DNA of 30,685 nucleotides from Candidatus Eiseniibacteriota bacterium (GCA_023249815.1 JAHFBX010000002.1:1-30685), one strand, 5' to 3'; positions 5,792 to 29,020 are shown, numbered from the stretch's first letter. Numbers and translations are program-made. Notes: a model not told the origin generated them from the sequence alone.

Positions 5792-5822
5792 TGTCACACC
5801 GGAACGCCGGCAACGACGAACC
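5792..5822 (+). promoter_or_regulatory. Putative ECF-type promoter, copy 1 (GTCAC-N16-CGACGA)
   Basis: tGTCACacc-ggaacgccggcaa-CGACGAacc, intergenic, about 70 nt upstream of the lipoprotein ATG. Same motif and spacing at 6270 and 28994. Confidence 0.7.
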
Positions 5823-5893
5823 GATCGTGAAGCGGCCCAGCGTCCCTGATTCAGACGGGAACCGGGCCGGAAAGGTCCGAAAGGAGGCCCGCC

Positions 5894-6163
5894 ATGCTGC
5901 GCATGACCCTGCGTTTCGCGATCGCGCTCCTCGCGCTCGTCTCGCTCTCCGGCTGCGCCATCGAACGCCTCACCGGCCCCAACGTGGAGCTCACGGCTTC
6001 GGCGCGGGACCGCGCCGTTCCCTATTGGCGCGACTGCATCCGAACCGAACGCCAGGCGCGGCCACGCGACGACGATCCCAAGCTCCCGCCGACCGGCGGT
6101 GAGCAGGGCGACGGCATCGCGACGGCCTCGGACACGCTGCGCGCCGGCGGCGAGGACCGCTGA
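5894..6163 (+). CDS. Small lipoprotein (89 aa), function unknown
   Basis: Strong SD aaggagg at 5881-5887. Signal peptide MLRMTLRFAIALLALVSLSG-C with lipobox LSGC, followed by a charged low-complexity mature part. Confidence 0.8.
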   Translation: MLRMTLRFAIALLALVSLSGCAIERLTGPNVELTASARDRAVPYWRDCIRTERQARPRDDDPKLPPTGGEQGDGIATASDTLRAGGEDR

Positions 6164-6205
6164 TCCGGCGCCGACCCCCCGCCATCCCAAGGAAGGCCCC
6201 CACTC

Positions 6206-6237
6206 GAGCCGGCCCCGGGGAGACCCGGGACCGGCTC
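6206..6237 (+). terminator. GC-rich hairpin downstream of the lipoprotein gene (terminator-like)
   Basis: gagccgg...ccggctc outer stem enclosing cccggg-GAGA-cccggg, followed by the weak tract attcct. Confidence 0.45.
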
Positions 6238-6269
6238 ATTCCTGCCCCCCGCCGCGGCGGCCACGGTGG

Positions 6270-6299
6270 GTCACACCCCGGGGCCTGGCACGACGAACC
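6270..6299 (+). promoter_or_regulatory. Putative ECF-type promoter, copy 2 (autoregulatory, upstream of the sigma gene)
   Basis: GTCACacc-ccggggcctggca-CGACGAacc. It shares GTCACACC and CGACGAACC with copy 1 at identical 13-nt separation. Confidence 0.7.
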
Positions 6300-6511
6300 C
6301 ACTGAGTCCCGCGGGTGATTTCGCTGGAGAAGGCTCTCTCAACCGGCCCACCCCGCACCTCGTTCCACACCATCGAAAAGGGGTATATCCGTGGCGACTG
6401 AGCGCGACCGGGAAAGGCACGTCGGCCCCACCTCGTCTCTGGCGACCGGCCCATCGCATGCCCCGGCATCGCGGCGAGTCGTCGGGATTGCTAGTCTCCG
6501 GGACCAACGGC

Positions 6512-7978
6512 ATGTGTCCGGCGCCGATTGGGCGCCGCCGCCGCACGTCCTGGAGGTCCGCCCTGGCTCCGCCCGACGCTGCCCCCTCCCCGTCCACCCC
6601 CGATTGGCAGTCGCTGCGTTCGTACGTGCTGCGGCGAGTTCGCGGCCGGCTTCGATTCGCGCCCGCCGAAACGGTCGAGGACCTGGCGCAGGAGGTGATG
6701 GTCACGTTGTTCCGCCTGTCCCAGCGCGAGACGCTCGCGAACCCCGAAGCGCTCGCCACGACGCTCGTGCATCGCGTGACCGTGGATCACGTGCGACGCA
6801 TGCGGGGACCCGCCGGCCGTCTGGATCCTCTCCCCGATCCAGACACATCGCTCGACTGGCCGGCGGCCGATCCGACGCACGAGGTGCCGGCGGACGCGCT
6901 CGAACTCTTCCGCTTCGTGGTGCTGGAGTACTTCGAGGGACACGACGTGCCCTGCTACGAGCTGGCGAACGAATTCTTCTCGGAACAGAGCTGGTCCGCG
7001 GTGGCCGAACGCCTTGGGCTCCGACACAACACCGTCATCAAGCGGTGGTCGCGCTGCATGGAGCAGGTGCGCGAGTGGGCACGGACCGAGCAGGGCGCGC
7101 TGTGGGATTGGGCCCGCGCCCGGCTCCGGGGCTTCAGCATCGGCATCCTGTCCGAGGACGAGACTCTCGCGCTCGAGGAGCATCTGCGCGATTGCGTCCA
7201 GTGCCGTGCGAGCCTCGCCTCGCTCCGGCCCGTGGCGGCCGCGGACGTCGGCCACCTTCCAGCGTCGCTGGTGGCGACGTGGCCGCGCGCGGCGCACGCG
7301 CTGGCGGGGATCGAGCGCGAGATGGTGGCCGCGCATCTCGACCGCTGTGCCGCATGCCGCGCGAGCCTCGAGTTCGCAGGGCATGCGCCCGAGTTGCCCG
7401 ACGAGCCGGCAGCCCGTGTCGTGCGCACGGTGCGTGCGAGCCGCGTTCGCACCGTCTGGGTGTGGGCGCTCGGTCTCTCGGGCGCTGCGGCCGGTGTCGT
7501 GGCGTGGATGCTCGCCACGCAGCCGGGCCCGTCGCCGGGCGGCTCGCGCGACGCCGGCACGTCGGCCACCATGGGTGGCGCGAGGCCACGGAGCGAACCG
7601 GCCGTGACGTTTGAACTGGCGCTGGATTCTCTCGCCACCGGCGCGGTCATGCTTCCCGAGCCCGGCTTCCGCGGGAGCCCGGTGAGGGTGCTCGACCTCG
7701 GTGCGGTGACGTCGGTCTCGGGCGTGGTGTTCGTGGTGCCGCCCGCGCTCCGGCCACCGAGCCCCGAGGACGGCACGCGCGCGCTCACGCTCACGCTGCT
7801 TCGGGACGGTCGCGAGCTGGCAACGCGCCAGATCCGGTTCTACGCGCTCGGTGACGCGTTCCGCATGCGTCCCGTGGGACGACTCGAAGCCGGCGAATAC
7901 GACCTGCGCTTCGCGCTGGCCCCCGCGGTCTCGAGCGAGCGGCCGCTCCTCTGGTTCTACCGGTTGCGCGTGCGCTGA
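6512..7978 (+). CDS. ECF sigma-70 factor fused to two ZAS (HxxxCxxC) anti-sigma motifs, one TM helix and a C-terminal extracytoplasmic domain; start uncertain (ATG 6458, ATG 6512 or CTG 6563)
   Basis: Region 2-like VEDLAQEV...DHVRR and region 4-like SWSAVAERLGLRHNTVIKRWSRC. Then HLRDCVQC (7181-7204), HLDRCAAC (7334-7357) and hydrophobic VWVWALGLSGAAAGVVAWMLA (about 7454-7516), all in one frame. A perfect GGAGG sits 6 nt before the CTG at 6563. Confidence 0.8.
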   Translation: MCPAPIGRRRRTSWRSALAPPDAAPSPSTPDWQSLRSYVLRRVRGRLRFAPAETVEDLAQEVMVTLFRLSQRETLANPEALATTLVHRVTVDHVRRMRGPAGRLDPLPDPDTSLDWPAADPTHEVPADALELFRFVVLEYFEGHDVPCYELANEFFSEQSWSAVAERLGLRHNTVIKRWSRCMEQVREWARTEQGALWDWARARLRGFSIGILSEDETLALEEHLRDCVQCRASLASLRPVAAADVGHLPASLVATWPRAAHALAGIEREMVAAHLDRCAACRASLEFAGHAPELPDEPAARVVRTVRASRVRTVWVWALGLSGAAAGVVAWMLATQPGPSPGGSRDAGTSATMGGARPRSEPAVTFELALDSLATGAVMLPEPGFRGSPVRVLDLGAVTSVSGVVFVVPPALRPPSPEDGTRALTLTLLRDGRELATRQIRFYALGDAFRMRPVGRLEAGEYDLRFALAPAVSSERPLLWFYRLRVR

Positions 7979-7984
7979 CGCACG

Positions 7985-8950
7985 TCAGCGGCGAAGCGAC
8001 AGCGCCGGGGCGGGGCCGGATGAGCAGGCCCGCACGCGGTCGCCGGGTCGCGCCTCGCCTTCGGCGAGCCTCGCGCGCACATGGTTCGGGCGGTCGAGAG
8101 CGGTGACCACGAGCACCCCGACACGTACCTCCTCCCCGAGCCGCACGAGGTCTTCGTCGTAGGTCTCGATCCCGGCGCGCCATACCTCGAGGCGCTGCCC
8201 GGTGAAGTGACCGCGCGCGGTGCCGACGTCGAGCGAACACAGCTCCCCCACCACCGTCTCGACGCGCGCCTGCCAGCGCTCCTGGAGCCTCGCGCGGATC
8301 GTGTGCGCGAGGTCCGAGAGCGTCTCGCCGAGCGCTTCGCCGAGCAGGGTTTCGGGCATGGCGGCAACGAGCGATCGGTCGGGGCGAGACACCGTCGCGG
8401 TGCCACGCCCGGTGCGATCGCGCGACGCGCTCGTCTCGATGATCACCGAGCCATCGATGGCGTCCAGCACGCGCAGCGTCACACGCACCCGGGCGCGCGA
8501 TCGCGAATCGGGTGCCCCCACGCCCCAGCGCCAGAGCTTTCCGCCCTCGCGGCGGTCCTCGTGGACGAACTCGGTGACCGTACCAGTCATGACGATCTCG
8601 GCGTCCACGCGACGGGCCGACGCGAGTGCGGGCGCGTCATCCTCCGCGCGGCGAGCCGTCGGATCCGCGGCCGGGATCACGAACACGTCGCGGCCTCGCG
8701 TCGCGCGCAACGAGTCGGCGAGCAGCCGGGTGACGAGTGTCGCGGGCGAGGCCCCGGTCCACGCCTCCCAGGTGTGATCGGTGGCGTCCGCCAGCGAGAC
8801 CAGGAGGACACGAGCGTGCGGCGGATCGCAATCGCTCGAGGGCACGGCGGCGCGCGCGGGTCCGGGCCACGCCGCGAGCGACAGCGCGGCGAGCCACCGG
8901 AGGGCGCGCGGGAGGCGCGCAGGCAGGTCGCGGGGAGACAGGGAGGCCAC
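7985..8950 (-). CDS. Secreted CsgG/HfaB- or FlgT-like protein (alpha/beta domain plus C-terminal FlgT-like beta domain)
   Basis: Signal peptide ending ...WPGPARA; DAEIVMTGTVTEF and VRVTLRVLDAIDGSVI segments of the CsgG/FlgT-middle type; C-terminal LDVGTARGHFTGQRLEVWR...GDRV. GTG start; exact start uncertain. Confidence 0.6.
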   Translation of the reverse strand: MASLSPRDLPARLPRALRWLAALSLAAWPGPARAAVPSSDCDPPHARVLLVSLADATDHTWEAWTGASPATLVTRLLADSLRATRGRDVFVIPAADPTARRAEDDAPALASARRVDAEIVMTGTVTEFVHEDRREGGKLWRWGVGAPDSRSRARVRVTLRVLDAIDGSVIIETSASRDRTGRGTATVSRPDRSLVAAMPETLLGEALGETLSDLAHTIRARLQERWQARVETVVGELCSLDVGTARGHFTGQRLEVWRAGIETYDEDLVRLGEEVRVGVLVVTALDRPNHVRARLAEGEARPGDRVRACSSGPAPALSLRR

Positions 8951-9151
8951 CTCGAGGGGAGCCCCGGGGAGGTGCCGGGGGACCTTGTGCGGATGCCGGG
9001 TCCATCCGGCTCCTCATTCCCCGATGCACGCGGCGGACCACACGCGGGCGGCGCGGAATCCACGCCAATCGGCGACTGGCGGGTCTTCGAACCGTGAGCC
9101 GGTGGGCGGGCCGCCCCAGGCGAGGGGCGGTTCACCCGGCCACAGGGAGGA

Positions 9152-10363
9152 TCAGCGAGGCATGATCAGCGTGTCGCCCGGATCCTCGCCCTCGAGCTCC
9201 ACGGGGTACTCCGCTGGCAGCTCGCGCAGGCTCTCGATGAACAGCGGCACCTCGTCCGACAGATGGGCGAGCGCCTCGGGGCCCTCGCCCACGCGCAGGA
9301 TCTCGTAGAGCGTCGTGCGCTGAGCCGGCGTGAAGCCGGATTCGCGAATCAGCGTCTCGATCTCGGCGACGGTGGTCTTGTTCACGTGCCCGGTGGCGAG
9401 ATGGACGTTCTCCTCGAACAACGTACCGCCGAAGTCGTCGGCGCCGAAGTGCAGGCTCATCTGGCCGGTCTTCTTGCCCTCGCTGAACCATGACGCCTGG
9501 ATGTGCTGGAAGTTGTCGAGGTAGAGACGGCTCGCGGCCAAAATGCGGAAGTACTGGCTCGCGCCGGCGATGAACGGCACCTTCGACTCCATCGGCGTGT
9601 TGCCGCGCTTGTAGCTCCACGGCACGAACGCGGTGAAGCCCCCGGTCTCGTCCTGGAGCGCGCGGATGTGGTCGAAGTGCTCCACGACTTCGTCCGGCGT
9701 CTCGACGTGGCCGTACATCATGGTGGCGGTGGAGCGCATGCCGACGGCATGCGCCTGGGCGTGCACGTCGAGCCACGCCTCCGGCCCGCCTTTCTTGACC
9801 GAGATGCGTTTGCGCACACGCGTCGCGAGGATCTCCGCGCCGCCGCCCGGCAGCGTGCGCTGGCCGGCCTCATGGAGCGCTTCGAGCACGCCACGCAGCG
9901 ACAGCCCGCTCACCTCGGCCATCTGGTGGATCTCGGGCGCCGAGAAGAAGTGCGGCGTGATCTCCGGATAACGCCGGCGCGCCTCGCGCACGATGTCGGT
10001 GTAGAACTTCCACGGGATCTCGGGATTCAGGCCGCCCTGCAGCAGCACCGTGGTGGCGCCGAGCCCGCGCGCGTTCTCCATCATGGCCATGACGCCTTCC
10101 ACGTCGTGCGTATAGCCATCCGCGGCCGGCTTCTTAGGGTTGCGGTAGAACGCACAGAAGTGGCAATCCACCGTGCACCAGTTCGTGTAGTTGGGATTCG
10201 TGTCGATGACGTAGGTGACGATGCGCGGATCCGTGCGCCGGGCGCGGGCCTCGTTCGCGAGCGCGCCCAGCTCGATGAGCGGAGCCTCCGTGAGCAGATA
10301 CACGCCCTCGTCGTGGTTCAGGCGCTCACCGCGCGTCACTCGGTCTTCGATTCGGTTCAACAC
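9152..10363 (-). CDS. mqnC: Cyclic dehypoxanthinyl futalosine synthase (radical SAM, CofH/MqnC family)
   Basis: CTVDCHFC radical-SAM motif, VTYVIDTNPNYTN, LLQGGLNP, LPGGGAEIL, TATMMYGH, HIQASW, GADDFGGT. SD gaggag before GTG 10363 (TTG 10360 also possible). Confidence 0.9.
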   Translation of the reverse strand: MLNRIEDRVTRGERLNHDEGVYLLTEAPLIELGALANEARARRTDPRIVTYVIDTNPNYTNWCTVDCHFCAFYRNPKKPAADGYTHDVEGVMAMMENARGLGATTVLLQGGLNPEIPWKFYTDIVREARRRYPEITPHFFSAPEIHQMAEVSGLSLRGVLEALHEAGQRTLPGGGAEILATRVRKRISVKKGGPEAWLDVHAQAHAVGMRSTATMMYGHVETPDEVVEHFDHIRALQDETGGFTAFVPWSYKRGNTPMESKVPFIAGASQYFRILAASRLYLDNFQHIQASWFSEGKKTGQMSLHFGADDFGGTLFEENVHLATGHVNKTTVAEIETLIRESGFTPAQRTTLYEILRVGEGPEALAHLSDEVPLFIESLRELPAEYPVELEGEDPGDTLIMPR

Positions 10364-10433
10364 GGGGGTGGACTCCTCGTGACGGACGCGCGGTCGCTTG
10401 GCAAGGCGGCTCTCATGGCTGCGGCGGCGACCG

Positions 10434-10462
10434 AGGATACACCGCGCACGTGGCGCCTCCAA
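10434..10462 (-). promoter_or_regulatory. Possible sigma70-type promoter for mqnC
   Basis: Minus strand TTGGAG-N17-TATCCT, immediately downstream of the pilin-operon terminator. Weak consensus match. Confidence 0.3.
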
Positions 10463-10497
10463 AGCGAAGCGCCCGTCACCGGGAGCGTGACGGGCGC
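10460..10497 (-). terminator. Intrinsic terminator after the minor-pilin operon
   Basis: Perfect 11-bp stem gcgcccgtcac / gtgacgggcgc with a 7-nt loop, followed on the minus strand by ttcgcttt, about 28 nt after the pilX-like stop. Confidence 0.7.
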
Positions 10498-10524
10498 ATG
10501 AACCAAGTCGGTGCGGCGAGGCGG

Positions 10525-11760
10525 CTATTGCTCGCGCCAGGACAGGGTCACGTACTGACCGCCGTACTTCGCGAGCGCCTGTTCGATCGCTGCTTTGGAG
10601 TAGAGAATCGTCATGCCACCGTTCCCCTTGACCTTGGTCTTGCCGGTCACGATGACGCCGCCCAGGATCCACGCTTGGCCGTTGATGTCGAAGTCGCCTT
10701 CCACGAAGACCAGTCCCTTGTAATGGAAGCCGGCGTTCACGTGCAGATCCCCGTCCACATAGAGGAAGCCCTCGCCGTCCACGCTGTGCAGGGCCAGCGA
10801 GGCTGACTGATCTCGTGTCGTCGTGTTGTTGTCCCAATAGGTGAGGCCGTTCCAGGTCGAGGGTGGCGTGTTCCGGGGTGCGCCGAGCCAGGAGTAGAAC
10901 TCGGACTGCGACATGGTGAACGCCTCCCACGGCCCGGCGTAGAACCCGGTCTGGCCCGCGGAGAAGCCGGCCGGGCTGCCTGACGCGCCCGAGGCGCCGG
11001 CACCGGTCACGGCGCCGGTGCTCCACGCACCGGGCAGGTTCATTCCGCCGACCTCGTTGTCGATGCAATGGCTGGCGTCGCCAGGCATGACGCCGCGCCC
11101 GTCCTCGCCGTCGTCGTAGGGCGTGTCGCCATCGTGGTTGTAGCCGCAGATGTAGGCGTTACCCACGAACTCGATGGGGACGTCCGCGGTCAGGGCGCCC
11201 TTCACGTTCACGATGAACGGCTTGGCGATCACCTCGCTGACCAGGCTGCGGCGCGCCGAGCCCACGCGGCCCGTGGAGCTCACGACGTAGACCGGCGAGC
11301 CGGTCAGAGCGTTCATGGTCGGGTTCTTCGTCGGGTCGTACCGCATCACCGCCGTGCCCGTGGGATCTTTCTTCCAGCTGATCGTGAGCACGTCCGGTCC
11401 GCGTGTCGCGCTGGTGTAGTTCAAGTATTGGCCCACTGGCTGACCCGTGGCGAGTCCGATCGAGTCCGCGCCGAGCGCGGGTACGCTACCGGCGATGGTG
11501 TTGAACACCTGGCAGACGTCGTCCGGGTCGGTCGGGTCCATGAGCGTCTCCTGGTTCTTGATGCGGGCAATGGCTTCGCCCACACCCGCCTCCGCCAGGT
11601 TCAGCGACTGCCGCATGCGCTGATCGTTGCCTGCGAGCCCACGGTTCATGCTCGCCCCAGCCATGAGGACGAGTCCGAGCAGGGACATGACGAGCAGGAT
11701 GAGCAGGGCCATCACGAGTGCGATGCCCCGTTCGTTGCGGTGATGCCGAGTCGCGTTCAT
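10525..11760 (-). CDS. pilX: PilX-like minor type IV pilin (411 aa)
   Basis: Class III signal ERG|IALVMALLILLVMSLLG lacks Glu5, the PilX/GspK hallmark. Also SLNLAEAGV and C-terminal VDGDL/VEGDF beta-repeats. Last gene of the pilin cluster. Confidence 0.75.
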   Translation of the reverse strand: MNATRHHRNERGIALVMALLILLVMSLLGLVLMAGASMNRGLAGNDQRMRQSLNLAEAGVGEAIARIKNQETLMDPTDPDDVCQVFNTIAGSVPALGADSIGLATGQPVGQYLNYTSATRGPDVLTISWKKDPTGTAVMRYDPTKNPTMNALTGSPVYVVSSTGRVGSARRSLVSEVIAKPFIVNVKGALTADVPIEFVGNAYICGYNHDGDTPYDDGEDGRGVMPGDASHCIDNEVGGMNLPGAWSTGAVTGAGASGASGSPAGFSAGQTGFYAGPWEAFTMSQSEFYSWLGAPRNTPPSTWNGLTYWDNNTTTRDQSASLALHSVDGEGFLYVDGDLHVNAGFHYKGLVFVEGDFDINGQAWILGGVIVTGKTKVKGNGGMTILYSKAAIEQALAKYGGQYVTLSWREQ

Positions 11761-11773
11761 GTTCGCCGTCCGA

Positions 11774-14700
11774 TCAGCGGATGAAGACAACGAGGGCGCC
11801 GGTCGTCGCACTCGCCTTCACGCCGGCCGCGAGGTCGGAGAGATAGGGCGAAGGCGGTGCCGTCGTGTTGAGGCCGTAGTTGAAGTTGGCACTCGCCAGG
11901 GCTGGGACCATGTTCACGACCGTGCCCTGCGACGGATCGACACTCAGGAACGGGATGAGCCCCAAGTCCATGTAGAAGATGCAGACTCCACCGCCGTAGC
12001 CCGCGGTGGAAGTGCGGAAGCCCACCGCGAGGTCCGTGCGATTCGCCAAGCCGCCCAGGTCCGCGGCCACCATGCTCAGGACGATGCCGGGCGCGTCGAC
12101 ACCGCGCACGATGGCGAACGAGTAGGGCGTCACCGCGCCGGTATTGCGGAACTGGTAGATACGACCCTGCGACGTGTTGCGCTGGGTGCCCACGAAGATG
12201 TCCTTCCAACCGTCCCCGTCGGCGTCCAGGCAGACCACGGACGTCGGCGTGAGCCCGCCGAACGTCACCGCGTAGCGGTAGGCGAACCGGTTGCCCGCGG
12301 TGCGGCCGCGGTTCTCGTAGACCACCATCTGGCCGTTGTAGTCGCTCGTGCGTGTGGCCACGAGCAGGTCCTTGTCGCCGTCGTTGTCCATGTCGGCGAG
12401 CGTCATGCTGTTCACTTCGCCCATGATGAGCGTCGAGATGGAGTTGAACTTCTCGTCCCGGGTGAACGTCGGCGTCGCCGGCGCCGCCGCGTCGTTGTTG
12501 AGCCACACCTCGAACGATCCCTGCCCCGCGACGGGAGACTTGGTGCCGACGATGATGTCCGGCATGGCGCCGCCACCCACGTCGAGCGTGACCACCGACT
12601 GTACGTCGCCGGCGTCGGCGGTGGTGTAGTTGCCGCCGGTGCTGTACGTGGTCGGCAGGTAGCCCTCGTTGTTGCTCGAGCCCTGCGTGAACCACACGTA
12701 GAAGTTGCCCGATGGTGAGTATTTCGTTCCGGTGACGAGATCCGGGCGCAGCGGGTTGTCGTTCTGGTCGAGCGTGTCCACCGCCATCGCCATGACGGAG
12801 TTCGGCGCCAGGCGCGTGTAGCCGTCCGGGTTCGTCGGCGTGGCATTGAACAGCGGCGAGCTGGCGTAGCGGTTGAACCACACCGAGACGTTGTCCGTGG
12901 CGCCAGCGTCGGCGCCCAGCAGCAGGTCCTGGTCGTGGCGGGCCTCGTTCGTCTTCTTGCCGTTCCAGTCCGCCTCGATGACGTCCGCCGCGGTCAGCGA
13001 GAGCACGCGGTTCGCCGTGAGCCGGATGATCTGGAAGTTCGCCATACCGAAGTTGATACCCGTGATCTGCGGCGTCGAAGCCAGCCACAGTCCGCCCAGC
13101 GACGTCCCGCTGGTCGGGAAGTAGCCTGCCGGCGGCACGGTGTAGACGGAGTACGCGTTCACGTGCGGCGGGTCGTTCACCGGCGCCGTGATCGCATAGT
13201 CGCCCGAGGCATCCGACATCGCGTAGCCCGCGACAGTGGTGCCACCGTCCTTCGTCGCGCCCACCCAGACGTTCGCGATACCGGGTTCGCCGGTCTCCCA
13301 CGTGCCGTTTCGGTTGGCATCCACGTACACCTTGCCCGAGATCTTGCCGGTGATCTGGTGCACGAGGCCGAACGCCGTCGAGTCGCTGCCGCCGTTCGAC
13401 ATGCTGCCGGCGTAGGGGTTCGTATTCGTCACGCCGAGCGTGTCGGGGTTGACGCAGGTCACGGTGAAGCCACCGACGCCGGTGAACAGCGCGACGCGAC
13501 CCACGGCGTCGGTGACGCCGCTCGTCGCTTCGGGAGTGCCGGGACTGATGTTGATGCGGACACCCTGAATCGGCGTCTCGGTGACGTCCCAGCTTGCATT
13601 CGCGTTCTCATCGTGCCACGCGCGGACGGTGACATACCCGCCGCTGCGTGCGGTGTCCGCGAAGTCCTTCGAGTAGGCGGCGTTCGCGATCGTCACGTTG
13701 AACGTGTCTGGCGCCATATACGAGCCAAAGCCCATCGCCGGCGTGTGCTTGAGCACGTAGTTGCCGGACGGCGCGCGGAGCTGGTAGTAGCCCCCCGAGT
13801 TCGTGTACGCGACATAGTTGCCCAGTCGGACGGTGGCATTCAGAATGCCGACCTCGCCGCCGTTCATGGTGCCGTTCGTATTGGCGTCATCGAACACGTA
13901 GCCCGAGACGACGTACGTCGACGGACCAAAGTCCGGCACGCTGCGGGCCGCGTTCACGTCGCTCTTGAGCGTGGTCTGCGGATACTGGCCCTTCGCGTCG
14001 GGCCGCGACGCGGCGGCGGTCACGCGGAGCTCCACGCGCTGGATGTCCTGAAGCCGGTTCTGCGGCACTGGGCCATTGCTCCAGTCCCACGGCGTGGACA
14101 GACCGCGGAAGTACACGGTGAACAGCGCCGGCACACCGGTGTCGCCGGGCTTGCGGACGAGCGCCACGCGCTCGGTGGTGCCGCCGTTGTCATTGGCCAC
14201 GTCGTTCGTGGAGTCGCCGTACACCTGGCGCACGAGCACGTAGTCGTTCGGGTTCGGCGTGGCGGCTGCGTCCGCGCCCTGCGGCGCGGAGATGTCGCTC
14301 GCGTCCACGGCGCCGTCGTTGTTCACGTCGAGCGTGTAGCGGATGAGTTCGGCGCCGGTGCGATAGCGGATCGGCGGCGCGTAGACCGTGCCGTCCAGCG
14401 GCTTCGGGCGCGGCGAGTCGGCCGGGTCGTACGCCAGCGGCGCGTGTGGTCCCGTCGCGTTGTCCGGGAACGGCAGCTGGTTCTGGGACATGATGATCTC
14501 GAGCGAATCCACATACGCGATGGCCGGCTGCTGTGGCGAGTAGTCGGTGTCGGCTCCGTAGCCTGCCGTGCGGATGTCACGCGACATGAGATCGAGCGCC
14601 GCGCGGGCGAACTGCTCGCTCTCGATGCGGCCCGTCGTGCGCTGCTTGCTCTTCGCCGAGTTCTGGAGGACGAGGGTCACCGTCACCGCGACCAGCGCGA

Positions 14701-19919: not shown

Positions 19920-19924
19920 GGCGT

Positions 19925-21144: not shown

Positions 21145-21173
21145 AGTATACCGACGCTCGCGTGCATCGTCAC
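21145..21173 (-). promoter_or_regulatory. Sigma70-type promoter for the mqnE operon
   Basis: Minus strand GTGACG-N17-TATACT, about 40 nt upstream of the mqnE start. Confidence 0.55.
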
Positions 21174-21229
21174 ACCTCGGACGGCATCTGGAAGGTGCCC
21201 CGCCCGCCGCGAAACCGGCCCGGGCGTCA

Positions 21230-21238
21230 TGCTAAGGT
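21230..21238 (+). promoter_or_regulatory. Extended -10 element for the ABC transporter (divergent promoter)
   Basis: TG-c-TAAGGT (TGnTAnnnT), about 30 nt upstream of ATG 21270, with SD gaggag at 21258-21263. Confidence 0.4.
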
Positions 21239-21269
21239 GAACGCTCCGCCCCCTTGCGAGGAGTCCCGA

Positions 21270-23168
21270 ATGTCGTCTGCCGCTCCTGCCCGAGTCGCCG
21301 CCGTGCCGAAGAAGCCCAACGTGAGCCTGCGCGACGTGTGGCCCGATATCTGGGCGCTCGTGCGTCCCCGGCGCGCGATGATCGGCTTGGGCCTGCTGCT
21401 CATGGCGATCAATCGCGTGAGCGGACTCGTGCTGCCGTGGTCCACCAAGTCCTTGATCGACGACGTCATCGGGAAGCGCCAAGCCGAGCTGCTGTTTCCG
21501 TTGGTCGGCGGCGTGCTCATCGCCACGGTCATCCAAGGCATCACGTCGTTCACGCTCACGCAGCTCCTCTCCAAGGAGGCGCAGCGCCTGATCGCCGAGA
21601 TGCGCACGAAGGTGCAGGCGCACATCTCGCGGCTGCCGGTCTCCTATTACGACTCCAACAAGACCGGCGCGCTGGTGTCGCGCATCATGAACGACGTCGA
21701 GGGCGTTCGGAACCTGATCGGCACCGGGCTCGTGGAATTCGCGGGCGGCCTGCTCACCGCCATGCTCTCGCTCGGCGTGCTGTTGCGCATCAACGCGCTC
21801 ATGACGGTCATCACCGCCACCGTGCTCCTGAGTTTCACGTTCATCCTGAATCGCGCGTTCACGATCATGCGCCCGATCTTCCGTGAACGCGGCAAGATCG
21901 GCGCCGAGGTGCAGGGACGCCTCACGGAGTCGCTCGGCGCGGTGCGCACGGTGAAGGGCTATCACGCCGAGGAGCGCGAGCAGGGCGTGTTCGCGGCGGG
22001 GGTCAAGCGCCTGCTCGACAACGTGCTCGCCACGCTCACCGCGCAGTCCGTCATGCAGCTCTCGAGCTCGCTGCTGCTGGGATTGGTCGGCGCGATCATC
22101 ATGTTCGTGGGCACGCGCCACATCTTCAGCGGCCAGCTCACGCTCGGCGGCTATTTCACCTACACCATGTTCCTCGGTTTCCTGATCGCACCCATCTTCC
22201 AGATCGTCTCGATCGGAACGCAACTCACGGAATCGCTCGCCGGCCTCGAGCGCACGCGCGAGGTGCTGTCGGAATCGCCCGAGGACACCGACCCGCGCCG
22301 CACGGTCGCGCTGGGAGCGCTGCGCGGGGACGTGGTGTTCGAGCACGTGGACTTCGCGTACGAGGCCGACAAGCCGGTGTTGCGCGACATCTCGTTCCAG
22401 TCGCCCGCCGGCACGGTGACGGCGCTCGTGGGATCGTCTGGCTCGGGCAAGAGCACCATCATCGGGCTGATCGCCGCGTTCCACTCGCCCAATGCCGGCC
22501 GCGTCGCAGCGGATGGCGTGGACCTCACCACGGCGCGGCTCGATCACTATCGCACGCAACTCGGCGTCGTGCTCCAGGATACGTTCCTGTTCGCGGGGAC
22601 CATCCGCGAGAACGTGTCGTTCTCACGCCCGAACGCGACGGACTCGCAGATCCGCGAGGCGTGCCATATCGCGCGCGTGGACGAGTTCGCGGATCGCTTC
22701 CCGGACGGGCTCGACACCGTGGTCGGCGAGCGCGGCGTGAAGCTCTCCGGCGGCCAGCGCCAGCGCGTGAGCATCGCGCGCGCCATCCTGGCCGACCCGC
22801 GCATCCTGATCCTCGACGAAGCCACGTCGAGCCTGGACTCCGAGAGCGAGTCGCTCATCCAGGCCGGACTCCAGCACCTGATGCAGGGCCGCACCACGTT
22901 CGTGATCGCGCACCGCCTCTCGACCATCCGCCGCGCCGACCAGATCCTGGTCGTCGAGGATGGACGCATCGTCGAGCGCGGCAATCACGCTTCGCTGCAC
23001 GCCGCGAACGGTCGCTACCGCGACCTCTACGATCGCCAGCACGGGCTGGAGCAGAACCTGTTCCTGGCGCCGGGCGAGGGCGACAGCGCCCCCGAGGCCG
23101 AGGCCGGCGCCGCGGCGCGAGGCGGCACCGAACCCGGCATGCTCGACGTCATGCGCGGCGGGCGATAG
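21270..23168 (+). CDS. ABC exporter, fused TMD-NBD (MsbA/Sav1866-like; 632 aa)
   Basis: Six-TM N-terminal domain, Walker A GSSGSGKST, LSGGQRQR signature, ILILDEATSSLD, IAHRLST. Confidence 0.93.
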   Translation: MSSAAPARVAAVPKKPNVSLRDVWPDIWALVRPRRAMIGLGLLLMAINRVSGLVLPWSTKSLIDDVIGKRQAELLFPLVGGVLIATVIQGITSFTLTQLLSKEAQRLIAEMRTKVQAHISRLPVSYYDSNKTGALVSRIMNDVEGVRNLIGTGLVEFAGGLLTAMLSLGVLLRINALMTVITATVLLSFTFILNRAFTIMRPIFRERGKIGAEVQGRLTESLGAVRTVKGYHAEEREQGVFAAGVKRLLDNVLATLTAQSVMQLSSSLLLGLVGAIIMFVGTRHIFSGQLTLGGYFTYTMFLGFLIAPIFQIVSIGTQLTESLAGLERTREVLSESPEDTDPRRTVALGALRGDVVFEHVDFAYEADKPVLRDISFQSPAGTVTALVGSSGSGKSTIIGLIAAFHSPNAGRVAADGVDLTTARLDHYRTQLGVVLQDTFLFAGTIRENVSFSRPNATDSQIREACHIARVDEFADRFPDGLDTVVGERGVKLSGGQRQRVSIARAILADPRILILDEATSSLDSESESLIQAGLQHLMQGRTTFVIAHRLSTIRRADQILVVEDGRIVERGNHASLHAANGRYRDLYDRQHGLEQNLFLAPGEGDSAPEAEAGAAARGGTEPGMLDVMRGGR

Positions 23169-23246
23169 CGGATCGCCGTCCCCGCGCCGGGGGCGTGGGC
23201 CGGGGGCGGGGCCGAGCGCATTCCTCCTCTTCCTCCTGCGAACGAC

Positions 23247-23296
23247 CGAGCGCCCGAGCGCCCGAGCGCCCGAGTGCCCGAGCGCCCGAGCGCCCG
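23247..23296. repeat. Tandem 8-bp repeat (CGAGCGCC) x6, one copy CGAGTGCC
   Basis: Units start at 23247, 23255, 23263, 23271 (variant), 23279 and 23287; intergenic between convergent genes. Confidence 0.95.
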
Positions 23297-23338
23297 CAAC
23301 GGCATCCGAGCCGTGGCGGGCGTTGTTCGTTCGAGACA

Positions 23339-25984
23339 CTAGAGATCGAAGTGGTGCGCCACCTTGACGAGGAACACGTTGTTCGCCGGCGCGCGGGACA
23401 TCACGCGATAGGAGTGATCCACGTCGAACTCGTTCACGCCGTCCTCCGCGGCGCGCTCCTGCGTCCACACGAAGTAGGCGGTCGAACCGGGCAGGTACTC
23501 CCAGCGCACGACCGCATTGCCCCGCAGCGAAGCGAACGTGCCGCTTATCGCCCGGGTGAGCGTCACCACGGGATCCCCGGGGTCCGACACGATGGGGTCG
23601 GTCACCGACACCAGCTCGTACGTGCGCGACCTCTCGAGCTCCTTCATGTCGTGAAAGCGGAGCGTGGAGAGGAGCGGCTGCAGGTACACCTGGAAGCTCA
23701 CGTTCGGCGTCGCCGAGTAATCCGCGCGCAGTCCCATCGACAACTGGGTCTGCTCCAGCTCTGCGAACTGCGAGCCGGTCATCGTGCTGCCGGAGATGTT
23801 GCGGAGGAATTGGGTGTCGGTGTGGGACAGGAAGTACTCCGGACCGCCGCTCAACCCGAGGTTCGGGATCGGGCGCCACGTGACGCCGTTGCTCACCGAC
23901 TGCGTCCACGAGCCGTCCTGGCTGAAGTTCGGGTTGTAGCTCACCCACCAGAACCACGGGTTTCGCCCGTTCGTGTCGAAGTAGAGGTTCAGGTTGGCGC
24001 CAGGCTTGCTCGCCATGAGCGGCCCGCCACGCGTTTTCCGCGAGTTGAACGCCGGGCCGAACAGGAACGTGTTCGCTTCGTAGCTCCAGCGATTGCGGCC
24101 TTCGGCGCGGCCGCCGAGGTAGAATCCCTTGAGCGTGCTGTTGCCGCCGAAGTCCCAGGTGCTCGCGAGCGCGCCGAGCACGTTGGCGTACTGACGCCAG
24201 CCCTTCGGCTCCTCCCACTGCCAACCCGCGCCCAGGTGCGCGTTGACGATGTCGCCGCCGAACTGGAATCCGAGGTCGTTGTTGTTGAAGCCGGGCGAAA
24301 GCGCGCCCACGGCGGAGTTGAAGAGCAGCTTGCCCTGCTGCTTGTTGATCCACCATCGTGAGCTCCAGCCCGTGAGCGTGGTTGCGCCCGGATCGACGCC
24401 GAGCCCGGGACGGTCGGGACGCTGGTAATAGTGCGGAAAACCCTTCTGGATCGAGCTCATCCGAGCCGGGGTGCCGTGGATCTGTGACGCGGTGGCGTAG
24501 CCCGAGATCACCCACGTGCGCTTCTTGTCGAGGAACGTCCAGCCATCCATGGCAGAGACCACGGAGCGATCATTCACCTGGTCGCGCAGCGGGTCGGAGC
24601 CGCCGTCGAAGAAGCGCGCGGTCGTCATCGTCATGAGGCCGATGCCCTGCCGGCGATCGTTCAGCTCGTGCATGAATCGATACACGCCGTAGTAGCTCAT
24701 CGGCTCGACGCCGTAGTCCGTGTCCGTGCCGTCGAAGTTCCTGCGCGTGGCGATCTCACGCTGCGTGAGCGCCTGCACCGTTCCGACGTTCCATCCGGGC
24801 GCGGCCTGTCCCGTCACCTTGGCAGCGCCCAGGATGTGCGTCGCCAGCGGGTTGTCGGAGGAGTCCGCCGAGGAGGTCGATCCCTGGGGCGTGCGGCCGA
24901 TCCGGCGTGAGTAAAAGAAGATCGGCTCCGGCCAATTGAAGCCCCAGTAGTCATTCGCGCCGTTGTTGCCGCAGCGGAACACGCTCACCCCCTCGGTGAA
25001 GAACGGGCGCTTCTCCTGGAAGAAGCTCTCGACGTCCGAGAGGTTCACGACCGCCGGGTCGACCTCGACCTGGCCGAAGTCGGGATTGATCGTCGCGTTG
25101 AGCGTGAGCTTGGAGCCGAGGCTCGTGCGCAGGTCCCCGCCGAGGGCGGGCGTCGACTTCCAGCCGGAGTGGAACGGATTGTCCGTGTTGAACTCGGTCA
25201 AGCTCCCGGAGTCGAACCGCAGGTGCTCGGCCTTGTTCGTGGCGTAGGGCGTGACCTCGATGTTGCGCGCCGGCTTGAGCCGGTCGAGCCCTTGCAGCTC
25301 GGGGAAGCGCGACACGTAGCCGGACTGGCCGCGCGGCGTGTAGACGAGCGCGTCCAGCTCGTTCAGCCGGCTGATCGAGCGCTGGAAGTTGACACCCCAC
25401 ACCATCTGGTTCGCGTTGAAGCGCAGCTGTGAGAACGGGATCCGCATCTCCGCGGTCCAGCCTTCATGGTCGCGCTGCACGCGGGCCAGCCAGACGCCGT
25501 CCCACGACGAGTCGTCCCAGCCATCGTTCATGAGCACGCCGTCTGCGAGCACGCCGGCGGCCGAGACCTGGAAGAAGTATCCCGTCCGCTTGTCGCGGTA
25601 GGGGTCGAGCATGACGGAGAACGCGTCGGAGCCGCCGTCGTCATCGCGACGGACGAGCCGCGCCACGACGGAGTCGGGCGCGCTGTCGAACAGCCTCGCG
25701 CCCACGTAGACGGCGTCGTCGTCGTAGGCCAGCCGCACCTCGGTGCGCTGCCGGGGCGCCTGGCCCTGGTCAGGGTCACGCTGCGTGAACGACGTGATCG
25801 CGTTGCCGTTCTTCCAGATGTCTTCGTTCAGCAGGCCATCGACGGCGATGGGTCGATCGGTGCGCACGGCGCGCACCGGCGGATGCTGCGGCTCGGTGGT
25901 CGGCGCGGCCGGCGCGGGGGGGTCCTGCGCGAAGGCTGGCCACGCGCAGGCTGCGAGCATGAGGGTTGCAACGAGGGTACGCAT
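23339..25984 (-). CDS. DUF5916-type protein: N-terminal CBM9-like/DOMON domain plus probable outer-membrane beta-barrel (881 aa)
   Basis: Signal peptide ending ...WPAFA. IAVDGLLNEDIW, TEVRLAYDDDAVYV, GWTAEMRIPFSQLRF, TINPDFGQVEVD, FFQEKRPFFTEG, FYSRRIG, and a C-terminal FLVKVAHHFDL beta-strand. Confidence 0.8.
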   Translation of the reverse strand: MRTLVATLMLAACAWPAFAQDPPAPAAPTTEPQHPPVRAVRTDRPIAVDGLLNEDIWKNGNAITSFTQRDPDQGQAPRQRTEVRLAYDDDAVYVGARLFDSAPDSVVARLVRRDDDGGSDAFSVMLDPYRDKRTGYFFQVSAAGVLADGVLMNDGWDDSSWDGVWLARVQRDHEGWTAEMRIPFSQLRFNANQMVWGVNFQRSISRLNELDALVYTPRGQSGYVSRFPELQGLDRLKPARNIEVTPYATNKAEHLRFDSGSLTEFNTDNPFHSGWKSTPALGGDLRTSLGSKLTLNATINPDFGQVEVDPAVVNLSDVESFFQEKRPFFTEGVSVFRCGNNGANDYWGFNWPEPIFFYSRRIGRTPQGSTSSADSSDNPLATHILGAAKVTGQAAPGWNVGTVQALTQREIATRRNFDGTDTDYGVEPMSYYGVYRFMHELNDRRQGIGLMTMTTARFFDGGSDPLRDQVNDRSVVSAMDGWTFLDKKRTWVISGYATASQIHGTPARMSSIQKGFPHYYQRPDRPGLGVDPGATTLTGWSSRWWINKQQGKLLFNSAVGALSPGFNNNDLGFQFGGDIVNAHLGAGWQWEEPKGWRQYANVLGALASTWDFGGNSTLKGFYLGGRAEGRNRWSYEANTFLFGPAFNSRKTRGGPLMASKPGANLNLYFDTNGRNPWFWWVSYNPNFSQDGSWTQSVSNGVTWRPIPNLGLSGGPEYFLSHTDTQFLRNISGSTMTGSQFAELEQTQLSMGLRADYSATPNVSFQVYLQPLLSTLRFHDMKELERSRTYELVSVTDPIVSDPGDPVVTLTRAISGTFASLRGNAVVRWEYLPGSTAYFVWTQERAAEDGVNEFDVDHSYRVMSRAPANNVFLVKVAHHFDL

Positions 25985-26219
25985 GCGGGCTCCGGGGGGA
26001 GGCCGTTGGGCTTACGGCCTCGTGGGGTCGCGCCGGGTCACGGTAGGCGCTCTTCTGCGCGCCGCGGCCGACGCGCGATGTCCGCTGTACGGGCCGGCGC
26101 TGTGGGAGGTTGCCGTCCGCGCCGAGGAAACTGACCCGATTTCGCGTCGAGTTCCATGCGCCCCCGACGAGCGCTGGATTCCAAGCCACCAACCGGGGGT
26201 GGTTCGTGCCGACCGGCGC

Positions 26220-27134
26220 TCAGGACCGGATGAGGGCTGCTGCGAGTTCTCCCGCGACGCGGGCGTTGCTCTCGAGGAGCGCGATGTTCGTGCGCGTCGC
26301 CGCGCCGCCGGTCAAACGCTGCATACGGTCGAGCAGGGCGGGTGTCACGCCGCGGCCGCCGACGCCTTGCGCCCTCACCTCCTCCAGCGCCTCCGACATG
26401 GCCCGCTCGTACGTGTGCTCGTCCAGCTCGTCGGCCTCGGGCACCGGGTTGGCGATCACGATCCCGGTGCCAGTGTCGAGCGCGACGTGGGTGCGCACCG
26501 CGTCGGCGAGTCGCGACATGTCGTCGAAGCGCTCGTCCACGCGCAGCCCGCTCGAGCGCCTCCAGAACGCGGGGAAATGCTCGCACCGCCAGCCGAGCAC
26601 GGGGACGCCCAGCGTCTCGAGGCGTTCCACCGTGCGCGAGAGGTCGAGGATGGCCTTGGCGCCCGCGCACACCACCGCCACCGGGATGCGGGCCAGCGCG
26701 GTGAGATCGGCGCTCACGTCGTCGGTCTCGGATGCACCCCGGTGAACACCGCCGATGCCACCCGTGGCGAACACGCCGATGCCGGCGTGATACGCGGCCA
26801 GCATGGTGGCCGCGACCGTGGTGGAGCCGACGCCGCGCGCCACCAGCACGGCCGCGAGGTTCCCGAGGTTCACCTTGGGCACGTCCGGCGTGGCCGCGAG
26901 TCGTTCGAGCTCCTCCGGCGTGAGCCCCACGCGCACGGCTCCGTCCAGCAGCCCGATCGTGGCCGGGATGGCGCCGCCCGCCACGACCTGGGCCTCCATG
27001 TCACGTGCGACACGCACACCCTCGGGGCGCGGGAGCCCGTGCGTGACAACCGTGGTCTCGAGCGCCACCACGGGGCGATGGGCCGCGAGCGCGCGTGCCA
27101 CCGGCTCGGCGATGCGCAGGCGCTCCATGGTCAC
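26220..27134 (-). CDS. psuG: Pseudouridine-5'-phosphate glycosidase (PsuG/IndA family)
   Basis: VVALETTVVTHGLP, FATGGIGGVHRG, DVSADL, VCAGAKAILD, VIANPVP. GTG start overlaps the pfkB TGA. Confidence 0.9.
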   Translation of the reverse strand: MTMERLRIAEPVARALAAHRPVVALETTVVTHGLPRPEGVRVARDMEAQVVAGGAIPATIGLLDGAVRVGLTPEELERLAATPDVPKVNLGNLAAVLVARGVGSTTVAATMLAAYHAGIGVFATGGIGGVHRGASETDDVSADLTALARIPVAVVCAGAKAILDLSRTVERLETLGVPVLGWRCEHFPAFWRRSSGLRVDERFDDMSRLADAVRTHVALDTGTGIVIANPVPEADELDEHTYERAMSEALEEVRAQGVGGRGVTPALLDRMQRLTGGAATRTNIALLESNARVAGELAAALIRS

Positions 27135-28090
27135 GATCCCGCCTCGGCGCCGCCGGCAGGTCGTGGCGCGGCGGCGCGCTCGGCCACACCTCGTTCGCCT
27201 GAGGCACGCACGGCGGCGGGAGCGGCCGCGAGCAGTCCATCGGGACCCCAGGCGCGGATCGCGATCTCGGCTGACGCGATCGCCCGGCGCAGGCCCTCAC
27301 CGGGCTCCGCGCCTTCGAGCCACGCGGACAGGAACCCGGCTGCGAACGCATCGCCCGCACCCGTCGGATCCACGGCGCGCATCGCGCTCGGCGGCCATCG
27401 CTTGAGCTCCGCGGCTTGCGAGTCGTGCAGCGTCCCGCCCGAAGCGCCCTGCTTCCACGCCACGAATCGCAATCTTCCGCTGGCGAGTGAAGCCAGTGCG
27501 CGCTGTGCGTCGGCCTCGTCGCCGGGCCAGCGCACCTCGTCGTCGCTCGGGAAGAACGCGTCCACGTGCGGGAGCAGCTCGCGCCAGTCGTCGAGTGTCT
27601 CGGGCGAGACGGGAAGGTGCGGGTCCAGCGAGACGAGCGCCGGGCGCTCCGGGGCCTCCCAGCCGCGGATGGCGAGCACGAGCGCGCGCTGCGTCGCGAT
27701 CGGCATCGGCGCCAGGTGGAATGCGCGCGCCGTGCGCCACGCTCCGGGCACATGCGCGGGGTCGGGCGAGACCGCTTCGTGCGACGGGCAGCCCGAGTGG
27801 TGGACCACGCGCCGTGCCACGCCCTCGTAGAGGAGCCACGTGCGTACGCCGTTCGCGCGCAGGTCGTGCACGCCGTCGAGCGACACGCCGCGTTCGCGGA
27901 GCGCGGCGAGCGCGGTCGGTGGATAGTCGTTACCGCGCAGGCTCACGCAGCCCACGCGAACGCCCCACAGCGCCGCGGCGAGCGAGGCGTAGAGCATGGC
28001 GCCTCCCGGCTGCGCCATGCGCGTGCGGCCGTCTGGGAACACCACGTCGTCCACGAGCAGGTTGCCGAGCAGCACCAGGTCGGGCGTCAT
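27131..28090 (-). CDS. PfkB/ribokinase-family kinase (candidate pseudouridine or nucleoside kinase; 319 aa)
   Basis: LLGNLLVDD, PGGAMLYAS, FFPSDDE, C-terminal signature VDPTGAGDAFAAGF; coupled to psuG. Confidence 0.85.
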   Translation of the reverse strand: MTPDLVLLGNLLVDDVVFPDGRTRMAQPGGAMLYASLAAALWGVRVGCVSLRGNDYPPTALAALRERGVSLDGVHDLRANGVRTWLLYEGVARRVVHHSGCPSHEAVSPDPAHVPGAWRTARAFHLAPMPIATQRALVLAIRGWEAPERPALVSLDPHLPVSPETLDDWRELLPHVDAFFPSDDEVRWPGDEADAQRALASLASGRLRFVAWKQGASGGTLHDSQAAELKRWPPSAMRAVDPTGAGDAFAAGFLSAWLEGAEPGEGLRRAIASAEIAIRAWGPDGLLAAAPAAVRASGERGVAERAAAPRPAGGAEAGS

Positions 28091-28113
28091 GTGCGTGGAG
28101 CCCGCTGCGCGCC

Positions 28114-28938
28114 TCACGCGCCGCGCGGCGTGAGCGCCGTGAACGCTGCAACCATCGCCCGCGCGGCATCGGCGTCGAGCGCGTTGGACCACAGGCCGCC
28201 CTGCTTCACGGACGAGCCCACGATGAAGCCATCGGCGTGCGCGTAGCTCGCGAGATTCGCGGGTGTCAGCCCCGAGCCCACGAGCACGGGGAGGTGGCCG
28301 GCATCGCGCGCCGCGGCCAGGTCGGCGGGCTCGGCGGGTTCACCCGTGGCCGTGCCGGTCACCACCAACCCGTCCGCGAGGAAGAACTCCGCCGCGCGCG
28401 CCGTCTCGGCCAGTGACACGTCGGCGGTGAGCGCATGCGAGGAGTGCTTCTTCTTGATGTCGGCGAACACGCGCACGCGCTCGGCGCCGATCGCGCGCCG
28501 ATAGCGCATGAGCTCGCCCGCGAACGACTGCACGATGCCCTCGTCCGCGACGTGCGCGAACACGAACCCTTCGACGCGCACGAACTCCGCGCCGCAGGCG
28601 TGCGCCACTGCGATCGCCTCGCGGTTCGCGGCCGCCAGCACCTGGACGCCGAGCGGGAGCCCTGTCTCTCGCTTGATCTCGTGCGCGAGCACCGCCATCG
28701 CGGCGGTCACCTCGGGGCCGACGCCACCTTTCAGATAGGGCCGGTCGTGCATGTTCTCCACCGCGAGCGCGTTGAAACCCGCGTCTCGGTACGCGCGCGC
28801 CTCGCCGAGCGCGTGCTGCACCAGGCGCTCCACCGAGTGGTGCGCGGTGGGCGTGCCGGGGAGTGCTCCCACGTGCACCATGCCGATCAAGGCACGCGGC
28901 GAGCCGAACAGCTGGCGGAAGGTAGCGCGGGGGTCCAT
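28114..28938 (-). CDS. BtpA/SgcQ family TIM-barrel protein (274 aa)
   Basis: IGMVHVGALPGTP, VENMHDRPY, LGVQVL, ADIKKKH, ADGLVVTGTATG, VLVGSG, ADGFIVGSSVK. Confidence 0.88.
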   Translation of the reverse strand: MDPRATFRQLFGSPRALIGMVHVGALPGTPTAHHSVERLVQHALGEARAYRDAGFNALAVENMHDRPYLKGGVGPEVTAAMAVLAHEIKRETGLPLGVQVLAAANREAIAVAHACGAEFVRVEGFVFAHVADEGIVQSFAGELMRYRRAIGAERVRVFADIKKKHSSHALTADVSLAETARAAEFFLADGLVVTGTATGEPAEPADLAAARDAGHLPVLVGSGLTPANLASYAHADGFIVGSSVKQGGLWSNALDADAARAMVAAFTALTPRGA

Positions 28939-28992
28939 GGGCCCGCCAGCGTAGGGAATCGCTCCCCGGCGCGTCCACCCGTGGCCCTGCAT

Positions 28993-29020
28993 TGTCACGA
29001 GACCCCGGTGTGCCCGACGA
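28993..29020 (+). promoter_or_regulatory. Putative ECF-type promoter, copy 3 (upstream of the STAS gene)
   Basis: tGTCAC-gagaccccggtgtgcc-CGACGA with the same 16-nt spacer as copies 1 and 2, intergenic, about 65 nt upstream of the STAS ATG. Confidence 0.65.

Follow-up and report, generated by a model that had tools for sequence, protein, structure and literature searches.

A conserved bipartite promoter motif at a divergent ECF sigma/anti-sigma locus of an uncultured Eisenbacteria genome, and its probable recurrence upstream of a STAS gene

Does a short bipartite sequence, GTCAC-N16-CGACGA, mark the promoters of a small regulon in an uncultured member of the Eisenbacteria, and would the sigma factor encoded beside two of its copies be the protein that reads it? 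The question is raised by a stretch of DNA of 30,685 nucleotides from Candidatus Eiseniibacteriota bacterium (the window, always meant here at its full length), which is contig C172 of G000, a metagenome-assembled genome (MAG) of 2.9 Mb in 388 contigs (65% complete, 70% GC) obtained from a groundwater metagenome. A sequence-only reading of the window had proposed that the motif defines the regulon of an extracytoplasmic function (ECF) sigma factor fused to its own ZAS anti-sigma domain, consisting of a lipoprotein gene, the sigma gene itself and an operon for a STAS protein and a hydrolase. Our analysis makes it likely that copies 1 and 2 of the motif are read by the ECF sigma factor encoded just downstream, that copy 3 belongs to the same promoter class but is weaker, and that the fusion is an artefact. 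The features on which this explanation rests are the following.

5793..5819, + strand: copy 1, predicted ECF-type promoter of a small lipoprotein gene (−35 GTCACA, −10 CGACGA; from the exact match, a position weight matrix and relatives)
5894..6163, + strand: small lipoprotein gene, 89 aa, predicted conserved first target (signal peptide and lipobox LSGC in the sequence)
6270..6296, + strand: copy 2, predicted distal autoregulatory ECF-type promoter of the sigma/anti-sigma operon (exact match, position weight matrix, alignment A3)
6512..7117, + strand: ECF-type sigma factor, divergent, with domains sigma-2 and sigma-4; the stop and the ~7 codons before it are missing from the contig
7118..7978, + strand: membrane-anchored anti-sigma factor (zf-HC2) with two HxxxCxxC (ZAS) motifs, one transmembrane helix and a ~150-aa periplasmic domain
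28994..29020, + strand: copy 3, probable weaker promoter of the same class before the STAS gene (exact match, alignment of relatives)
29086..29478, + strand: single-domain STAS protein, anti-sigma-antagonist-like (Pfam STAS, 43.8 bits)
29475..30425, + strand: PqqB-like metallo-beta-lactamase (MBL)-fold hydrolase, its GTG start overlapping the STAS stop (GTGA; from the translations)

The three-copy claim of the sequence-only reading is borne out by a pattern scan of the window, which finds exactly three matches to GTCAC-N16-CGACGA (5793-5819, 6270-6296 and 28994-29020), all on the + strand and all with the 16-nt spacer. Their intergenic placement stands as well. Copy 1 sits in the 120-nt gap after a 566-aa open reading frame (ORF) that gave no family match, with 74 nt separating its end from the lipoprotein ATG at 5894. 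For copy 2 this distance is 215 nt if counted to ATG 6512, or 266 nt if counted to the CTG at 6563 that follows a conserved Shine-Dalgarno sequence. Copy 3 lies between the divergently oriented BtpA gene, which starts at 28938, and the STAS gene, 65 nt short of the ATG of the latter at 29086. Copies 1 and 2 also have the additional bases GTCACACC and CGACGAACC in common, as described earlier. Shuffling of the window gave a mean of 0.07 matches, and none of 100 dinucleotide-preserving shuffles contained three. A genome-wide scan, one of the checks that the sequence-only reading had suggested, found nine matches on both strands of the 2.9 Mb of G000; the six beyond the window (0.064 per 30.7 kb) are at chance level. 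At this genome-wide rate, the chance of one additional copy anywhere in the window is ~6%. It should be noted that copies 1 and 2 served to define the motif, so that this is also the probability that copy 3 taken alone is accidental, and copy 3 was therefore judged on other evidence. A search of Rfam gave no match anywhere within the window.

The case for copies 1 and 2 is carried by related loci. We searched 60 related genomes with the sigma/anti-sigma protein as query, fetched the loci and scanned them for the motif. At 13 of the 19 sigma-homologue loci (91% to 30% identity), which reach beyond the genus into several genera and families, GTCAC-N15-17-CGAC is present on the sense strand at most 650 nt upstream. 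Its density upstream of sigma homologues is 1.06 per kb, as compared to 0.11 per kb elsewhere in those loci and ~0.02 per kb in the genome background. Within the genus, GTCAC(A)-N15/16-CGAC precedes the sigma orthologue in G017 (the nearest relative, at ~90% identity), G002, G015, G005, G014, G016 and G009. The two-copy layout, in which copies ~480-580 nt apart each precede a lipoprotein homologue or the sigma gene, is found in G002, G015 and G005. The position of copy 1 is occupied in these three genomes and also in G016 and G009, where one copy precedes the lipoprotein, sigma and anti-sigma genes in what appears to be a single operon. Lipoprotein homologues themselves are found in G017, G015, G002, G005 (two copies), G009 and G016, where they separate the motif from the sigma gene.

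The details of the motif agree with this distribution. In alignment A3, which covers the sigma leader of five genomes (G000, G017, G002, G015 and G014), every column of GTCACA and CGACG is invariant, in contrast to the variable spacer and flanks, and the consensus from the sigma loci is GTCACAC-N14-(G)CGACGAAC. A position weight matrix (PWM) trained on the relatives' sites alone, without those of G000, ranks copy 2 first (36.0 bits) and copy 1 second (27.4 bits) in the whole of G000. Phylogenetic footprinting, which had likewise been suggested as a check, shows that the motif is kept at sigma loci and at some STAS loci, and its description as a conserved bipartite ECF-type promoter of the adjacent sigma and lipoprotein genes holds in the loci of relatives. 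Copies 1 and 2 very probably represent a group-specific, autoregulated ECF promoter; the sigma factor would bind the motif, and transcription would be expected to start ~6-9 nt after CGAC.

The protein that would do so is a remote member of its class. The predicted sigma factor scores 23.3 bits against Pfam Sigma70_r2 (cut-off 24), with the region 4 domain unmatched, and 25.2 against TIGR02937 (cut-off 42.9); being below both the Pfam and the TIGRFAM cut-offs, it is considered a divergent ECF member. A search of the PDB with the sigma sequence alone gave no match, and a profile search of the same database recovered only SigE region 2 (E = 0.003). An AlphaFold (AF2) model built from a 20-sequence alignment reached a predicted local distance difference test (pLDDT) score of 79, and all top Foldseek matches of this model in the PDB are ECF sigma factors (SigL, SigE, SigH, E. 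coli sigmaE and AlgU; 160-187 aligned columns, probability 1.00), the first nine being SigL, SigE and SigH of Mycobacterium tuberculosis. By this structure model, the protein at 6512-7117 has the ECF sigma fold, with the two-domain architecture of sigma-2 and sigma-4 only. All 99 sigma homologues are 122-247 aa long, and the standalone ones are of 165-215 aa and end in ...WARAARVV. In G000, one strong member of this sigma family was detected. Directly downstream of the sigma gene lies the zf-HC2 protein (Pfam, 27.4 bits against a cut-off of 22.2), i.e. a co-encoded anti-sigma factor; its periplasmic domain matched only unnamed clusters in an ESM Atlas search, which returned no named relatives. 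A CsgG-like gene (Pfam CsgG, 25.5 bits; 7985-8950, − strand) converges on the anti-sigma gene, 6 nt from its stop.

The leader of the sigma gene holds three further elements.

6206..6237, + strand: 13-bp GC-rich hairpin, terminator-like, without a U tract (from folding), between the lipoprotein stop and copy 2
6483..6497, + strand: invariant block CGGGATTGCTAGTCT (CGGGATTGCTAnTCT), a possible proximal extended −10 (TGcTAgtcT; A3, five genomes)
6552..6565, + strand: Shine-Dalgarno GGAGG, 6-nt spacer and CTG (GTG in G014), GGAGGTCCGCCCTGG, invariant in A3

The hairpin, which G017 shares, may serve as a terminator or as a site of RNA processing. A scan of 5700-6650 for consensus promoters and terminators called nothing, this hairpin included. 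The CTG at 6563 is in frame with the sigma ORF, while ATG 6512 is not conserved in G017; the reading frame is open further upstream of 6512, and homologues start near 6512/6563. On the strength of the alignment, CTG 6563 is likely to be the true start of the sigma gene. The block at 6483-6497 lies 55 nt before the invariant GGAGG-N6-CTG and resembles a conserved GAGTATACTG box found upstream of kinase orthologues (see below), which suggests a proximal housekeeping promoter for basal sigma expression. Since copy 2 is 215-266 nt from the sigma start and this invariant block is nearer, copy 2 is not the sole candidate for the sigma promoter. As for the lipoprotein, the 89-aa product has no Pfam or NCBIfam match. 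The sole metatranscriptome contig in the region 5000-9000, from the same sample, aligns to 5883-6037 at 100% identity and covers the lipoprotein gene in its 5′ half; it records the presence of this sequence in the RNA library and not a start site.

For copy 3, the evidence comes from STAS orthologues. GTCAC-N16-CGAC aligns at those of G017, G005, G016 and G001. In the latter three, whose STAS proteins share 60-65% amino acid identity with that of the window, the motif lies 60-95 nt before the ATG, and the flanks have diverged to the point that nothing else is common except the Shine-Dalgarno region. At ~6e-6 matches per position and strand (the G000 background), the chance that three of five independent 200-nt regions match is ~1e-8. 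A monocistronic STAS gene among unrelated neighbours, without the hydrolase, still has the motif in G005 and G001; thus, the motif travels with the STAS gene. In addition, the operon of G017 runs on past the hydrolase into a second STAS gene and a metallophosphoesterase-like ORF, and this second STAS gene has GTCACA-N15-CGACGTAC 58 nt before its ATG (L046:2386-2412, G017:C98); the G000 contig ends at 30685, before the equivalent gene. In G007 (99% complete), no sigma orthologue was found with this query and the motif is absent at the STAS gene. The sequence-only reading had placed copy 3 upstream of a STAS/hydrolase operon, and this position is now footprinted in diverged orthologues. Copy 3 is probably a functional promoter, with the balance of the evidence tilting somewhat towards recognition by the same sigma factor, and a transcriptional link from the sigma factor to the STAS genes is plausible.

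The products of this operon resemble known proteins without reaching all family thresholds. The STAS protein scores 40.5 against TIGR00377, below the cut-off, and its Thr62 aligns with Ser58 of SpoIIAA (structures 1TH8/1TID), which provides a phosphorylatable residue. The hydrolase frame is broken in the window by an in-frame TAG at 29967-29969 (...LGNI*LRPLV), where the G017 orthologue (L046:1144-2088) has Glu and is intact over 314 aa; the latter scores 124 bits against TIGR02108 (PqqB), below the cut-off. There is no RsbW/SpoIIAB-like kinase or PP2C next to the STAS gene in the window up to 30685, a result confined to these neighbours as no genome-wide search was made.

A number of observations weigh against attributing all three copies to this one sigma factor, and most of them concern copy 3. 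With a PWM core score of only 10.7 bits, it is outscored by more than 31 sites of G000, most of which lie inside genes. At least 22 other G000 matches exceed the cut-off of TIGR02937, the ECF/sigma-70 family model, so that another sigma factor could read copy 3, and with G000 only 65% complete, further ones may sit in the unassembled part. G009 has orthologues of both the sigma factor and the STAS protein, yet no motif at the STAS gene. The RNA evidence consists of assembled contigs, and none of the listed RNA runs holds the STAS region. For copies 1 and 2, G017 keeps the two-copy layout, but its lipoprotein-proximal −35 reads GTCAT, and copy 2 is at some distance from the sigma start with a second invariant promoter-like block nearer to it. 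Finally, the contrast in pattern counts between sigma-positive genomes (27 vs. 10 for the control pattern) and sigma-negative genomes (5 vs. 1) is modest; its direction is right, but it is weak evidence because the controls are unequal too.

Several of these points favour a narrower regulon, in which copies 1 and 2 are genuine, copy 3 is read by another sigma factor or is a chance match, and the STAS operon lies outside. Besides the low PWM score, the ~6% probability of a chance match in the window and the case of G009, it is favoured by the several paralogous sigma factors carrying the same motif in same-genus relatives, and by a comparable site before a kinase gene (C217:2943) that is kept only in the near-identical G017. 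This site serves as a negative control for copy 3, which behaves differently: three diverged STAS orthologues, in two kinds of gene neighbourhood, retain its motif, against chance odds of ~1e-8, the motif recurs at the second STAS gene of G017, and G000 contains a single detected member of the sigma family. We consider the narrower regulon unlikely, though it deserves to be taken seriously. Far less probable is a reading in which the motif is no sigma recognition site but an operator, bound by a repressor or an activator. The tie of the motif to transcription initiation is drawn from sequence, and the distance of copy 2 from the start codon, with a promoter-like block in between, would suit an operator. 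Yet the motif is asymmetric, being neither a palindrome nor a direct repeat, its 16-nt spacer is fixed in length and unconserved in sequence, its orientation is always that of the sense strand, across genera it stays closely associated with the genes of a single ECF sigma family, and its −35 equals the experimentally proven −35 of ECF41 (PMC3426412).

There remains the fusion itself, from which the sequence-only reading had derived a one-component ECF factor. The site in question is the following.

7106..7119, + strand: junction of a 58-nt collapse between two GATTGGGCC... repeats, artificially fusing the sigma and anti-sigma genes (from the gap in the G017 alignment and from Logan contigs)

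At this junction the window lacks exactly 58 nt, comprising the sigma stop and the anti-sigma start, that all relatives possess, G017 included. In all eight same-genus relatives examined, the sigma gene ends in ...WARAA(R/H)V(V/L)-TGA and a separate anti-sigma gene follows in another frame, beginning a few nucleotides after the sigma stop or overlapping it. We also compared the window at 5000-9000 with Logan assembly contigs of the probable source run (X1; SRR14366763). These break at the junction: one ends at 7111, and the next matches from 7106 with 40 unmatched nucleotides in front. This second contig, L099 (2255 nt), begins with CGCGTGGTGTGAGGATCGCATGAGC... and reads ...RVV-TGA, 7 nt, ATG(MSAMHAH...); it encodes a standalone anti-sigma factor of 297 aa (P0102, MSAMHAHDWARARLRGF...), with 100% identity to the downstream part in the window, so that the true anti-sigma gene begins MSAMHAHDW.... 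Among 51 database homologues of the fused ORF none is fused, all covering only the anti-sigma part.

A real fusion in this strain, produced by a recent deletion of the 58 nt between short direct repeats and giving a membrane-tethered one-component ECF, would explain the uninterrupted in-frame ORF of the MAG contig; the GATTGGGCC repeats could mediate the slippage, and the break in the Logan contigs could reflect two variants in the sample. Against it, the sole independent contig across the site is unfused at 100% identity, the fused junction is bridged by none of the Logan contigs listed for 5000-9000, and the homologues and same-genus relatives all have the two-gene form. We regard a real fusion as improbable. 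The fusion is most likely an assembly error, the 58-nt difference pointing to a collapse during assembly or to a rare deletion variant. With the two-gene form found in a contig of the source run as well as in relatives, the proposal of a one-component ECF falls, and what the locus contains is an ordinary two-gene ECF/anti-sigma module. The apparent fusion, being a 58-nt collapse in a low-coverage MAG contig, should stay out of ECF classifications as a fused type.

Taken together, the preferred explanation, i.e. a two-gene sigma/anti-sigma module with its own promoter class, would operate as follows. The membrane-bound double-ZAS anti-sigma factor would hold the sigma factor until an envelope or redox signal releases it. 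Freed sigma would transcribe its own operon from copy 2 and the lipoprotein gene from copy 1, which corresponds to the usual positive-feedback loop of ECF systems, and the proximal block at 6483-6497 would supply basal sigma expression. Through copy 3, the same sigma factor or a paralogue would also drive, more weakly, the STAS gene and the PqqB-like hydrolase whose translation is coupled to it. The roles given here to the lipoprotein and the STAS protein are the ones we infer from this arrangement.

How does this module compare with known systems? ECF41 promoters have the form TGTCACA-n16(±1)-CGTC (Wecke et al. 2012, PMC3426412), and the comparison with ECF41 made by the sequence-only reading is right for the −35 element (PMC3426412). 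The −35 core (T/G)GTCACA is identical, both motifs are bipartite, and the spacer, if counted alike, is 15 nt here and within 16±1. In both cases the regulon is small, and the motif precedes the sigma gene and a single small target gene next to it. However, the −10 is CGAC(GA) here as opposed to CGTC or TGTT in ECF41, the SnoaL-like C-terminal extension of ECF41 is absent here while a ZAS anti-sigma factor is present, and the neighbouring gene encodes an 89-aa lipoprotein in place of a carboxymuconolactone decarboxylase/oxidoreductase/epimerase (COE). Sequence closeness to ECF41 proteins was undetectable in the PDB profile search. Because of the differing −10, the absent extension, the anti-sigma factor and the different neighbour, we do not assign the sigma factor to ECF41. 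In the literature, we found no described ECF group with this motif beyond ECF41, and nothing on the ECF sigma factors of Eisenbacteria.

The locus is organized more like a classical ECF/anti-sigma pair. SigW-RsiW, RpoE-ChrR and SigK-RskA are pairs of an autoregulated ECF sigma factor and a membrane ZAS anti-sigma factor. The operon order (sigma, then anti-sigma) is shared with this class, as are the HxxxCxxC motif, the single transmembrane helix, the extracytoplasmic domain, the group motif in the sigma factor's own promoter and the envelope-protein targets. It departs from the class in that the sigma factor is below the Pfam and TIGRFAM cut-offs, the anti-sigma factor has two HxxxCxxC motifs and a periplasmic domain without a known family, and the operon has in front of it a lipoprotein gene that carries a promoter copy of its own. 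Similarly, the STAS protein resembles SpoIIAA/RsbV in being a single STAS domain of ~130 aa with Thr62 at the position of the phosphorylated Ser58 of SpoIIAA, and differs in its coupling to a PqqB-like MBL hydrolase, its score below the TIGR00377 cut-off and its putatively ECF-dependent transcription. Fused ECF factors of the ECF48/52/53 type, which the sequence-only reading had named, are alike only in the single-ORF appearance of this contig; the comparison does not apply, as the fusion is absent from the independent assembly and from all homologues.

These results provide a well-supported promoter signature and a first regulon sketch (lipoprotein, sigma operon, STAS genes, membrane proteins) for a very divergent, uncharacterised ECF family, hosted by a candidate phylum without cultured members, and they indicate that a −35 of the ECF41 type also occurs outside ECF41. 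We would further suggest, as a tentative idea on the doubtful side of even, that an unclassified ECF clade of Eisenbacteria and relatives, too remote for the present family models and with an ECF41-like −35 (GTCACA) and a CGAC −10, transcribes STAS genes (two of them in the nearest relative) in addition to genes for a small lipoprotein and envelope proteins, and so wires an ECF/ZAS pair above a partner-switching cascade. Should the STAS link be true, a component of partner switching would here come under ECF control.

Elsewhere in G000, the third and fourth places of the PWM ranking go to C325:2150 and C217:2943. The former lies inside a gene, read as metK from its translation alone, and is for this reason probably a chance match. 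The latter (L047:244) lies 129 nt upstream of a Ser/Thr kinase-TPR gene. It is kept only in the 91%-identical G017 and absent from six other orthologues, which share the GAGTATACTG box, and was therefore not accepted as a regulon member. This kinase-TPR family is hugely expanded in the genus, with dozens of paralogues per genome. All the kinase orthologues (L086-L092) have the GAGTATACTG box, which is sigma-70-like, ~90 nt upstream, and it is probably the housekeeping −10 of the lineage.

G000 also contains a divergent pair of sites at C299:3258(−) and C299:3380(+) (C299:3232-3406, L052), both TGTCAC-N16-CGACGAT, on opposite strands and intergenic. The flanking genes encode a 91-aa protein (MPRYMVERTFPDG...) and a 314-aa membrane protein, and occur otherwise only in G017, at 100% identity. 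In relatives, more motif matches are found before lipoprotein and membrane-protein genes, which fits an envelope regulon. Among these, the motif is conserved before genes for a membrane protein of ~180-190 aa (M(D/N)RSARHLH...) and for a membrane-anchored protein of ~510 aa (loci L075, G001:C418, and L103, G005:C399; L100, G015:C403, and L101, G002:C104), which probably either belong to the regulon as well or answer to paralogous sigma factors.

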